Both the position numbers and the translations under genes were made by a program. The notes under the pieces were generated by a model. That model saw only the letters and a program-made list of their open reading frames with translations. It had not been told where the DNA came from and did no database searches. This document shows, in pieces, positions 34,695 through 38,721 of a stretch of DNA of 64,000 bases (position 1 is the stretch's first letter; every line of letters begins with the position of its first letter). Source of the DNA: Desulfobacterales bacterium (GTDB taxonomy: Bacteria; Desulfobacterota; Desulfobacteria; Desulfobacterales; UBA2174); NCBI GenBank assembly GCA_963668645.2, contig CAXXWC010000018.1, forward strand, positions 512,001 to 576,000. Direction: 5' to 3'.

Positions 34695-34727
34695 TGGACG
34701 CCAATTGGCGTCCAATAATTGTTGGGC
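34695..34727 (+). other. Candidate attI site at the head of the cassette array
   Basis: Perfect 20-bp palindrome TGGACGCCAATTGGCGTCCA, then ATAATT and core GTTGGGC (34721), complementary to GCCCAAC at 38668. Confidence 0.55.
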
Positions 34728-34819
34728 TCCGTGAGACATACTTCTAATTCAGGATACGGGTATGAAATATTACGTTGGTTTCAACTCCAATATGAATGAT
34801 TATCGAGAAATTTACTAAT

Positions 34820-36280
34820 ATGCGTTTTTCCATTCTCCATATCTCTGACCTTCATCAAGACTTAAACGACGAGGTTGCAACTGGTTGGCTTCTTGATTCT
34901 CTTGAACGAGATTTCGATCAATTTGAAAATCAAGATCCTATTATAGCTAAGCCTGCACTTTGCATTGTAAGTGGTGATATTGTCCGTGGCGTTAATCCCA
35001 ATGCAACCGATTCCGGCAAAGAATTAGAGCGGCAGTACGAGCAATCGGAGGAGTTCTTTGTCGGTTTGGCAAACCGATTTTTTGGTGGAAATCGCGAACG
35101 AGTCATTATTTTGCCAGGTAACCACGATGTCAGCTTTAATGACGTAATGGGGAGCGTGCAGAAGATCGAAATCCCGCCTGAGCCAGAAAGAAAGGCCAAA
35201 CTTGTATCCGAACTATTTACAACTAATTCTCGATTGCGATGGTCTTGGCGTGAGTTGTGCTTTTATAAAATTGCTGATGATGAACGTTACTGCAACCGAT
35301 TCCGCCATTTTGCAACGACATACGAGCGTTTCTATCAGGGGCACCGCAGTTATCCTTCAGCTCCTGAACATCAGTTTGATGTATTTGACTATCCTGACCT
35401 ATGTTTTTGCGTCGTTGCATTGAATAGCTGTTTCAACAATGACCCACTTCACCGTGCGGGAGCCTTCCACCCAGGCACCTTGGCTGAGGCATGCCGAATT
35501 ACCTTAAAGCATGACCGCGCTGGCTGGGTAGCCGCCGCGGCGTGGCATCACAACCTGCGCGGTGGCCCGGCTCAAGACGATTATTTGGACGCTGAATTTA
35601 TCCAACTGCTTATAGATTCAGGAGTGTCACTTGGTTTTCACGGACACCAGCACTTGCCTGAGTGCATTGACGAACGGTATCGCATTAGCAAGAAAACAAG
35701 GAAAATGACCATCATTAGTGCAAGCACGCTTTGTTCGGAACCACTTAAACTAAGCCCTGGTGTTCCTCGAAGCTATAACATTGTAGAAATTGACACTGAC
35801 ATTTTGAGCGGCCGTGTGCACCAGCGGCAAATGGTTAATAAACTATTCAATCTTCCTGTATGGGGACCAGGCCATTTCGCCAATACCAATAGCTCGTTCG
35901 TTGATTTTCAGATATGCAAACCACTAATGATTAGACCGATCAAGCTTGATGCACAGATAGCTCTCGATAGGGCAGATAAGCTTATCAGCACACAGCAATG
36001 GCGTGAAGCGGCAGACATACTCGAGGGCATAAAGGATATCCCTATTGCGCGGCCGCTACTTGTGAAGGCACTTGAGGAGTTGGGTGATTCACGTCGCACT
36101 ATTGCCACAATATGGCCGCCCTTAACTATTGCAGAAACGGTAACACTTGGCGGTGCAATCCTTGATTGCGGTACACATGAAGAAGCCGAGGCGTTCTGTA
36201 TGCTGGAATTTGTCGATAAGGCCGAGGACGCAAGTGTTCGGGAAATATTAAACCGATTAAGGCAGAGGCAATCAAAATGA
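34820..36280 (+). CDS. Calcineurin-like metallophosphoesterase with C-terminal helical extension (cassette 1)
   Basis: HISDLH, SGDI, PGNHD, WHH, HGHQH motifs; alternative start 34796. Confidence 0.88.
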   Translation: MRFSILHISDLHQDLNDEVATGWLLDSLERDFDQFENQDPIIAKPALCIVSGDIVRGVNPNATDSGKELERQYEQSEEFFVGLANRFFGGNRERVIILPGNHDVSFNDVMGSVQKIEIPPEPERKAKLVSELFTTNSRLRWSWRELCFYKIADDERYCNRFRHFATTYERFYQGHRSYPSAPEHQFDVFDYPDLCFCVVALNSCFNNDPLHRAGAFHPGTLAEACRITLKHDRAGWVAAAAWHHNLRGGPAQDDYLDAEFIQLLIDSGVSLGFHGHQHLPECIDERYRISKKTRKMTIISASTLCSEPLKLSPGVPRSYNIVEIDTDILSGRVHQRQMVNKLFNLPVWGPGHFANTNSSFVDFQICKPLMIRPIKLDAQIALDRADKLISTQQWREAADILEGIKDIPIARPLLVKALEELGDSRRTIATIWPPLTIAETVTLGGAILDCGTHEEAEAFCMLEFVDKAEDASVREILNRLRQRQSK

Positions 36281-38595
36281 GTGATGGAATAGTTTTTCAA
36301 GTAGAAACAACGCGTGTACTTCAAATTCTTGCGCGCGAAATATATGATTCGCCCCTAGCATTAATACGCGAAAATCTTCAGAACGCTTACGATGCTGTTC
36401 GTATGCAGTTTGCAAGTACTGGCACGCTAGTCGAGGGCGGTAGAATTGACATCCATGTAACTGAGAGGGAGGTGTCAATCTCCGATAATGGAATCGGAAT
36501 GAACGAGGAGGTTCTCCGCGGAAATTTTTGGAGGGCTGGGTCGAGTGGTAAACGTTCAGATCAAGCCCTAAGGGCTGGAGTAGTTGGTACGTTCGGTATT
36601 GGGGCCATGGCGAATTTTGGGGTTTGCACGCGACTTATTGTCGAGACACGAGCTGCTGGCAGTAATGAGACACTGCGCAGCGTTGCCGATCGAGATTCAT
36701 TAAAGATTGCTGAAGAATGCATCAGCTTGAAACGTACTGTTTCAGACATGGGCGTAGGTACCAAGGTGACCGCAATCTTGGATGTAGAAAATCCAATAAG
36801 TCAAGAACAAGCATTGCGATATCTTGAGCCTTATGTCTGTTTCCTTCCACTTCCAGTATATTTCAACGATAAACTTATAAGTGGCAACACAATTGACTCC
36901 CATCTCCCTATCTCAGGCCGAACTTTTGAGCAATTAGGAGTGCAAAACTTGACTGACGGGCTTTGTGGTGGATCTTTCGATGTACGAGCTGATTCAAATG
37001 GGCAACTTCTGGTTTTCGCTTCAAATATTACACTTGGAGGAAATGTAATTGAAGGGAATATTGCCCTTGTGCAGTCTGGTGGGCAGCTCATGGGGCTACG
37101 TTCTTATTTTGGTCTAGCTCCGATACCTGTGATAGGCAACTATCAGTTTGGTGGGTTTGCTAACCTATCATTTTTACAGCCAACTGCTGGACGAGAGGCG
37201 TTGAGCCGCGAAAGTATAGACCAAGTGTCCAGACTGGTAGGACTCGCTGAAAAAGCAGCTTCGGAGTTACTCGCTCAAACGCCTTTAGCCGACAAAAATA
37301 ACGCCTTCTTGCAATGGCTTTTGATACATAGTCGATACGACCTCGCAAATAAAGTATCGATCCGTCTGTTACCAGACGATAGGGATGTGCCACTTGGTGA
37401 GGTTACGTCTTACACTGACAAGAAAACTTCACACTACTACACAGGCAATGATAGGCATATTTTAACGACATTTGCTAATGAAGGGACTTATTTACTCCAT
37501 GTTGCACAGGCGGTCCCACGCCGGAAAGTACAACTACACTACCTATCCAACATAATACATCTGCAACAAGTGCCAGATTCAGCCCAAATAACGCGCATAT
37601 ACTCAGGAACAGACCTTACCTTGCCAGAAGCTTCCGTTCTGCTTCGGATCACATCTATCCTTCGCGAAGATTATTTAATCCCGGACGTTGAAATCTTACT
37701 ATCTGATATCTCACATGGGGTCACAGTGCTACCGCAAAAGGCAGGTACACAGCTCAAGATACATGTTTCAAGATCTAGTGCTTTATTGCCTCCATTGATC
37801 GAGTTCTATGATAAAGCATATGAACTTTTCTCGCAGTTCATGAAGGATTTCGTGAGAGTTCATATTTACCCAAGGATTCAGCAATTTGTACCATCATCAA
37901 CTAGAGACGGTGTTGATGCTTTACGGAAGTTGCTGCAACGCAACCGAGAATTGTATCGTTACGAGGAAACAGAATTAGGTGATTTAGAGGGCATACTTGG
38001 AGAATACCTCTCAGGTGCGGCGAGTCTTACTACGGTTCTCCATAACTCACGCGCTAAAGCACGTCCTCAAACTCAACGCGTTTCGCGCGAACAAGTTGGT
38101 GCTATTGAGACTGAGGTGCCTGGCATAGTAGATTCTCCTGTGTCACAGCAAGCTGAGGAGGGTACTGAGTTCGGACCTAGCCCACCTATTATCAGAGAGT
38201 CCGTCACGTCAGACATGAAAATTCTGACAACGGAGGGGAAATACCCATTCCTTAATAATTTTACTATGTTGCTTGGGCTTTCGGATCGCCTTATGCGAAC
38301 CGAGGCGGAATTTTTCCGCACTCCACATACAACCAGAATATTGTGGGGCGGACATCGAGTTGTATATATTTTCACAGAGGCAACAGGGAGGCTAAGCCTT
38401 TATTATGACATTGAGTTACGCTCCCCAATCAAGCCAACAAAAGCTGGCGGGGGTATGCTTCCAACAACAACATTAATTACGAATAAACGTATTTTTGTAC
38501 CAATTCCCGATACACTTGTTGATGAGTTCAAAATCGACACAGGGCCAAAAGAGTTCTTTGTTCGCTTCGATATTCTTAGCAGCGACGTTGTATAG
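36277..38595 (+). CDS. Hsp90/GHKL-like ATPase with novel C-terminal region (cassette 1)
   Basis: FQVET..IRENLQNAYDA, DNGIGM, GTFGIG, GTKV motifs; ATGA overlap. Confidence 0.88.
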   Translation: MSDGIVFQVETTRVLQILAREIYDSPLALIRENLQNAYDAVRMQFASTGTLVEGGRIDIHVTEREVSISDNGIGMNEEVLRGNFWRAGSSGKRSDQALRAGVVGTFGIGAMANFGVCTRLIVETRAAGSNETLRSVADRDSLKIAEECISLKRTVSDMGVGTKVTAILDVENPISQEQALRYLEPYVCFLPLPVYFNDKLISGNTIDSHLPISGRTFEQLGVQNLTDGLCGGSFDVRADSNGQLLVFASNITLGGNVIEGNIALVQSGGQLMGLRSYFGLAPIPVIGNYQFGGFANLSFLQPTAGREALSRESIDQVSRLVGLAEKAASELLAQTPLADKNNAFLQWLLIHSRYDLANKVSIRLLPDDRDVPLGEVTSYTDKKTSHYYTGNDRHILTTFANEGTYLLHVAQAVPRRKVQLHYLSNIIHLQQVPDSAQITRIYSGTDLTLPEASVLLRITSILREDYLIPDVEILLSDISHGVTVLPQKAGTQLKIHVSRSSALLPPLIEFYDKAYELFSQFMKDFVRVHIYPRIQQFVPSSTRDGVDALRKLLQRNRELYRYEETELGDLEGILGEYLSGAASLTTVLHNSRAKARPQTQRVSREQVGAIETEVPGIVDSPVSQQAEEGTEFGPSPPIIRESVTSDMKILTTEGKYPFLNNFTMLLGLSDRLMRTEAEFFRTPHTTRILWGGHRVVYIFTEATGRLSLYYDIELRSPIKPTKAGGGMLPTTTLITNKRIFVPIPDTLVDEFKIDTGPKEFFVRFDILSSDVV

Positions 38596-38667
38596 GTGAA
38601 ACCTGAAGAGAGTTGGGGATCATGCGTATTTGAATGTGGTGCATATTACAAGTAACAATTTGACAAG

Positions 38668-38721
38668 GCCCAACAATGCCAATTAACGCGGACGCAAAAA
38701 ACGCGCCGGTTATTGGCGGCG
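38668..38721 (+). other. attC site (left part), interrupted at G|TT by the RIT element; TTAGGC resumes at 41780
   Basis: GCCCAAC + GCCAATTAAC...GTTATTGGC imperfect stem + G. Confidence 0.8.

Follow-up and report, generated by a model that had tools for sequence, protein, structure and literature searches.

A strictly paired metallophosphoesterase and Hsp90-fold ATPase in an integron cassette as a candidate defence system

Fused conflict proteins in which an N-terminal HD or calcineurin-like effector precedes an Hsp90-like module and a variable C-terminal sensor were predicted by Nicastro 2023, according to a later preprint (bioRxiv 10.64898/2026.09.30.754977), the available text of which describes the Hsp90 plus phosphoesterase class as prediction only and anti-phage activity as rare among GHL ATPases. 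In the accessible part of the ParA preprint, Hsp90-like nucleoside triphosphatases (NTPases) are treated as infection switches in tripartite systems, and the available portion of the DefensePredictor table of cloned units holds two metallophosphoesterase entries, DS-8 and DS-9. For PUA-Cal (DS-9A), the available text reports that Asn367 is essential and that its Calcineurin-CE domain cuts deoxynucleoside diphosphates (dNDP) and nicotinamide adenine dinucleotide (NAD+) (PMC13092281; bioRxiv 10.64898/2026.01.15.699771). Here, a stretch of 64,000 nucleotides from a Desulfobacterales bacterium (the window; GenBank assembly GCA_963668645.2, contig CAXXWC010000018.1, positions 512,001–576,000) was analysed, in which a single integron cassette carries a metallophosphoesterase (gene A) and an Hsp90-fold ATPase (gene B; Table 1). 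The pair constitutes a real, widespread and strictly paired candidate defence system.

Using a scan of GTDB, 232 relatives were found, the best 80 of which, together with two plasmid loci, gave 82 loci for comparison. Gene A or its fragments occurred directly upstream of gene B on the same strand in all 82, including a locus (L040) that retains only 68 codons of gene A. Both genes were intact in 68 loci, always as separate genes, and 49 of these shared the ATGA overlap through which the two window genes are coupled. The genes are co-inherited, with strongly correlated pairwise identities (r = 0.94) and most supported splits common to the two trees (39/44 and 37/45), and in a reverse search full-length matches to gene A occurred in four plasmid records, the same four that carry gene B. 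Clustering of the 1107 flanking open reading frames (ORFs) of the 82 loci revealed no constant third gene (largest family in ≤9 loci), the recurrent families being integrases, restriction-modification subunits, and transposases. The spread of the pair amounts to 322 clusters at 50% identity, and none of the best 150 of these 322 cluster representatives exceeded 805 amino acids (aa); one sequence (P0283) looks like a frameshift join, and a weak search of nine long relatives found no HATPase Pfam domain. The pair is mobile, being present on plasmids and in hosts mixed across the tree (Proteobacteria, Acidobacteria, Planctomycetes, Chloroflexi, Bacteroidota, NC10, and the archaeon Methanoperedens), with a GC content below that of the flanks in 58 of 64 loci.

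The calcineurin-like phosphoesterase with metal motifs and a helical tail that a preliminary description of the window had read in gene A was borne out (Pfam Metallophos, E 2e-10). Translation probably begins at Met9 (34820), because the homologues are mostly 486 aa long. In the predicted structure (predicted local distance difference test [pLDDT], 89), a phosphoesterase domain (residues ~10–375) is followed by a six-helix TPR/HEAT-like tail (~379–494). The di-metal motifs of the Calcineurin-CE family (DxH, GD, GNH, H, and HxH) are present in all 69 aligned sequences, with D18, H20, D61, G108-N-H-D111, H251, H252, H284, and H286 invariant and H282 kept in 67. Among curated families, gene A comes closest to DS-9A and DS-8, which are anti-phage Calcineurin-CE effectors; the DS9_1 model was matched by all 65 gene A members searched, DS8 by 42, and SbcD by two. 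Residues L209-N210-S211-C212 form the LNSC motif that in PUA-Cal holds Asn367, a position mapped by eye. Five of the nine longer relatives are NACHT fusions. A Pfam scan found no NACHT domain in gene A itself. The top structural matches were the phosphodiesterases Rv0805 and GpdQ, and the best Foldseek match was Bacillus subtilis YydB (PDB 9a6c, an integrative model; E 4e-19), the partner of which is YydD and not an Hsp90; YydBCD is presumably an operon of the ABC-three-component/Lamassu type. Of the two targets first proposed for the effector, nucleotides are better supported than nucleic acid, and we infer that the enzyme acts on nucleotides.

Gene B is, as first described, a GHKL/Hsp90-type ATPase (Pfam HATPase_c_3, E 9e-9). 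The N-terminal domain (~5–200) has the catalytic Glu, the Asn, the Asp, and the G-boxes of the Hsp90 superfamily; E32, N36, D70, G72, G74, and the GxFGIG motif do not vary among the 69 aligned sequences. The long C-terminal region had not been recognised as HtpG, yet by fold comparison of the predicted structure (pLDDT, 82) much of it consists of the Hsp90 middle (~205–435, S5-like, with an invariant PTAGR306) and C-terminal (~436–590) domains, and only residues from about 596 to 770, a conserved beta-domain of unassigned fold, are extra. Across 48 copies, this beta-domain gave no significant match in Pfam; it also had no PDB match by sequence and no internal repeat. Its top ESM Atlas score was 0.76, the fold searches barely covered it, and its last strands resemble, by eye, what we take to be AbrB-type barrels. 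No Pfam domain other than HATPase was found in any of 55 members, HD-CE and wHTH included. Database records often label gene B as HtpG and sometimes gene A as CpdA. Gene B scored 52 bits against HtpG (cut-off, 371) and 80 bits against PRK14083 (cut-off, 455), and four distant members likewise fell short of both cut-offs. Searching a phage collection returned N-domain matches only, and a search of BFVD returned viral Hsp90, rIIA proteins, and topoisomerases, all through the GHKL fold. One homologue tried against Escherichia coli genomes had no DNA match.

A defence neighbourhood surrounds many copies of the pair. PADLOC models were searched (E ≤ 1e-25) with 421 of the 1107 flanking ORFs, chosen for a length of ≥130 aa and a distance from the pair of no more than 4 kb. 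They come from 72 loci, two plasmid loci with annotation and three near-duplicate loci having been set aside. Matches were obtained for 71 of the 421 ORFs, or 58 after removal of 13 generic ones (IstB-like, mad3, kinase, DEDDh, and partial). Named defence genes occurred within 4 kb at 28 of the 72 loci, and PDC candidates alone at four more, which supports the defence reading first proposed. Type I/II restriction-modification was found near the pair in 12 loci, the other neighbours including Gabija, Septu, Lamassu, DISARM, BREX, SPARTA, Hma, Dsr2, AbiD, AbiE, and others, and a copy on a Pseudomonas aeruginosa plasmid is near an ABC-three-component operon. As a control, none of the 42 window ORFs outside the array matched PADLOC.

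Judged from sequence, the pair is probably a defence system of some kind, with an anti-phage role, and the likeliest single model, at about even odds, is one of the abortive-infection type, with an Hsp90 clamp gating a nucleotide-depleting effector. Gene B would act as a dedicated, ATP-driven Hsp90-type clamp that holds the gene A product and keeps the phosphoesterase off. The ATP cycle would be driven by a signal of infection, in the simplest case a phage protein that the clamp takes up as a ‘client’ or that the beta-domain binds, and the enzyme would thereby be freed or activated. It would cut pyrophosphate or phosphodiester bonds in NAD+, a cyclic nucleotide, or (deoxy)nucleoside di- or triphosphates ((d)NDP/(d)NTP), and the drained nucleotide pools would then stop phage replication. 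Structure prediction of a complex between gene A residues 9–494 and gene B residues 340–772 scored 0.55 (runs 0.55, 0.60, and 0.17) compared to 0.00 for the best control, with a contact agreement of at least 41% and a partner pLDDT of at least 79, and weakly suggests that the two products bind directly. Of 157 solved pairs, 116 attained the pass level, as did two of 215 mismatched pairs, with only 18 solved pairs, yet both mismatches, among the passes at ≤0.60. Covariation between the proteins was calculated from 112 pairs (44 matched only by equal contig size), in which pairs within each protein also appeared noise-like. A more specific version, which we regard as doubtful, has the full Hsp90 serving as an immune receptor with the phage protein as its client, the helical-repeat phosphoesterase docking in the manner of a eukaryotic Hsp90 co-chaperone and being released or activated to destroy nucleotides; if true, prokaryotes would have a counterpart to the control of immune effectors by Hsp90 and TPR co-chaperones.

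Several observations weigh against a nucleotide-depleting defence effector gated by a sensing clamp. Unlike a fast-evolving sensor, the beta-domain shows the same level of conservation as other parts of gene B (mean column identity, 0.60). Gene A scored 43 bits against DS9_1 (cut-off, 420) in a match spanning positions 192–450 of the 486 in the profile, and the residue at the LNSC Asn position is Asn in 29 of 65 members, Ser in 32, and Cys in four, and thus Ser or Cys in 36. Strong defence neighbours are missing at 40 of the 72 loci, some of those counted (IetA, RmrA, SoFic, and PglW) may be generic enzymes, and the control is an unmatched one, drawn from the housekeeping region of one genome with overlapping spurious ORFs included. 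The third complex run, at 0.17, belongs on the same side. Both the trigger and the direction of control are ones we infer.

Among the alternatives, an unlikely one keeps the defence function but makes gene B a chaperone dedicated to maturation, or else a platform for activation, without which gene A is inactive and beside which gene A senses or acts alone. The complete Hsp90 N-M-C fold, the translational coupling at 49 of 68 intact loci, and a C-terminal domain that is conserved and not variable would all suit such a chaperone; the extra domain and strict 1:1 co-inheritance fit a switch at least equally, and a role as infection switch is the one described for Hsp90-type NTPases in the available part of the ParA preprint. 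A non-defence accessory module, for example a stress chaperone with a cyclic-nucleotide phosphodiesterase, is quite improbable. It would agree with Rv0805 and GpdQ heading the structural matches of gene A and with the HtpG and CpdA labels of the source records, against which stand the low HtpG and PRK14083 scores of gene B, the lack of any CpdA model match among the 65 gene A members, and the patchy, taxonomically mixed distribution with defence neighbours. We consider very improbable a restriction-like system that targets DNA through an Mre11/SbcD-type nuclease on a GHL DNA clamp (MORC/MutL-like). The remaining proposal, a PP5-like co-chaperone in which a helical-repeat protein phosphatase of the calcineurin family acts on clients of its own Hsp90, e.g. 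to undo the action of a phage kinase, is scarcely credible, as the C-terminal EEVD that is a feature of the Hsp90-PP5 partnership occurs in none of 65 gene B members.

Table 1. Features of the two-gene cassette and the element inserted behind it (feature, window coordinates, strand, details)
Integron cassette carrying gene A and gene B	34721–38721	+	overlapping two-gene unit
5′ core site GTTGGGC of the cassette	34721–34727	+	exact complement of GCCCAAC at 38668–38674
Gene A, Calcineurin-CE-like metallophosphoesterase with helical tail	34796–36280	+	494 aa; likely start 34820
Gene B, divergent full-length Hsp90-fold GHKL ATPase with beta-domain	36277–38595	+	772 aa
attC of the cassette, left part	38668–38721	+	opens with GCCCAAC; rest, TTAGGC, at 41780–41785
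Three-tyrosine-recombinase element	38722–41779	−	inserted in the attC crossover; outside the system

The integron cassette with two coupled genes that had been proposed was confirmed by its complementary core sites, its attC hairpin, and its ORFs. The hairpin, folded from the truncated site, has a free energy of −12.1 kcal/mol (z = −1.6), and hairpins are likewise formed by four other sites of the array (z = −1.8 to −4.6). No attC-type folding was found upstream of 34721, and the sequence directly before the core site (34610–34720) is probably attI-like. The cassette region has a GC content of 44–47% compared to about 60% in the flanks and the host. The placement of the cassette at the first array position stands insofar as it is the first cassette seen; no integron integrase adjoins it, and an intI gene beside attI, as in a complete integron, was not found. 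The window cassette is the first of an array without its integrase in the window, because the recombinases downstream are not IntI (58–75 bits against TIGR02249; cut-off, 265) and a tblastn search with nine integrases gave no match upstream of the array. The only trace is a stretch of 24 codons left over from the C-terminal end of an integron integrase, at 61698–61769 (−), far from the array start. Complementary core sites with an attC hairpin were also found in L003, L006, and L044. The same cassette is present in L003 (92% nucleotide identity) and a 48%-identical homologue in L044, in both cases opening with the GTTGGGC core and adjoining a gene that is integron-integrase-like by inspection and not by profile. 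In L044, a gammaproteobacterial integron, the cassette is flanked by long, near-identical attC-associated repeats (8290–8495 and 12290–12550). Cassette state is the exception among homologous loci, detected in three of 77 by a looser core-complement test (shuffled mean, 0.22) and in one of 82 by a strict attC test.

The attC of the cassette is interrupted at its G/TT crossover by the three-tyrosine-recombinase element, which we take to be RIT-like; the term ‘RIT element’ was absent from the papers returned by a literature search, at the level of its listings. The ends of the element recur in a second, deleted copy at 43633–44299 (repeats D2, D4, D9, and D10), and in both copies the insertion point is precisely an attC crossover (G/TT), which suggests that the element targets attC sites. 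Elsewhere in the array, a long cassette encodes a SIR2-fused prokaryotic Argonaute (pAgo; 44389–50287; PADLOC PDLC02384, both halves) that is broken by an insertion-sequence-like element (46566–49310) with an 8-bp target duplication. Two cassette ORFs (41797–42831, 344 aa; 42924–43526, 200 aa) had no Pfam or NCBIfam match, and a group II intron D1-D4 remnant (RF02005; 51697–51949) lies directly 3′ of a LysE cassette, apparently within its attC. The array is bracketed by a YefM-YoeB toxin-antitoxin pair (32835–33390) and a HicB gene (53040–53384). At 28997–32102, a 133-aa ORF lies between two genes with Clostridium P-47 domains (PF06597), and this group is bounded on both sides by duplicated copies of the 3′ end of a molybdate transporter gene; no toxin gene was found among the ORFs scanned.

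As a compact pair of 3.8 kb that is strictly conserved and in which the residues to mutate for loss of catalysis are obvious, the two genes offer a direct way to ask whether an Hsp90 clamp can be an infection switch. The pair is widespread though usually mislabelled HtpG, and the copies of PADLOC and NCBIfam that were searched contain no model for it. Both gave weak, domain-level matches only and, as first stated, no named system that matches. A full-text literature search, from whose reach most subscription papers and Nicastro 2023 were excluded, returned no published description of the pair.

Compared to DS-9 (PUA-Cal-HAD) and DS-8, the pair has an effector domain that is related and shares their metal motifs, and the window protein has the residues LNSC at a position mapped by eye (PMC13092281; bioRxiv 10.64898/2026.01.15.699771, in their available text), and its layout recalls the two genes of DS-9 and the NTPase switch of DS-8. 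It differs in having neither a PUA sensor nor a HAD partner, the partner being Hsp90-like in 82 of 82 loci, and no fused NACHT NTPase; identity with either system was rejected on these absences and on scores of 43 (cut-off, 420) and 22 bits (cut-off, 790), respectively. Tiamat (TmtA) is likewise an Hsp90-like GHL ATPase in defence, with a trans-acting Arg motif besides the catalytic Glu, that, as far as the available text describes it, has no middle domain of the S5 fold and carries a PD-(D/E)xK nuclease at its end (bioRxiv 10.64898/2026.09.30.754977). Matches between gene B and Tiamat were confined to the N-domain (23 of 55 members, the best with E 2e-8), and gene B was rejected as a Tiamat protein since its middle domain is S5-like and neither the DUF3684 core nor the C-terminal DUF3883 nuclease was found. 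With HtpG and PRK14083, gene B shares the N-M-C fold, PRK14083 being the closest profile (LRPTASRE, compared to LQPTAGRE in gene B), while scores far under the cut-offs, on which equivalence to either was rejected, ~170 extra C-terminal residues, an obligate phosphoesterase partner, and mobility set it apart. In L083 (4980–9958), a PRK14083 Hsp90-family gene is translationally coupled to a downstream gene of ~1055 aa that has no NCBIfam match and looks helical-repeat-like by eye, possibly a sister dyad of Hsp90 and repeat partner.

The predicted fused conflict proteins, as the citing preprint presents them, resemble the pair in placing a calcineurin-like nucleotide-hydrolysing effector before an Hsp90-like module and in an extra C-terminal domain, proposed as a sensor in the fused class. 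Here, by contrast, there are two genes, with no fusion in 68 intact loci, a helical-repeat tail belongs to the effector itself, the C-terminal domain is conserved in sequence and does not vary in size, and the 55 gene B members have no HD-CE or wHTH Pfam domain. Nicastro 2023 (doi 10.1093/nar/gkad879) may already list the dyad. Though no named system in PADLOC or NCBIfam matches, the pair is a variant and not a new kind of system as had first been suggested, because a phosphoesterase plus Hsp90-like class is already predicted in print; compared through the citing preprint, it may be best described as a split variant of that fused class.

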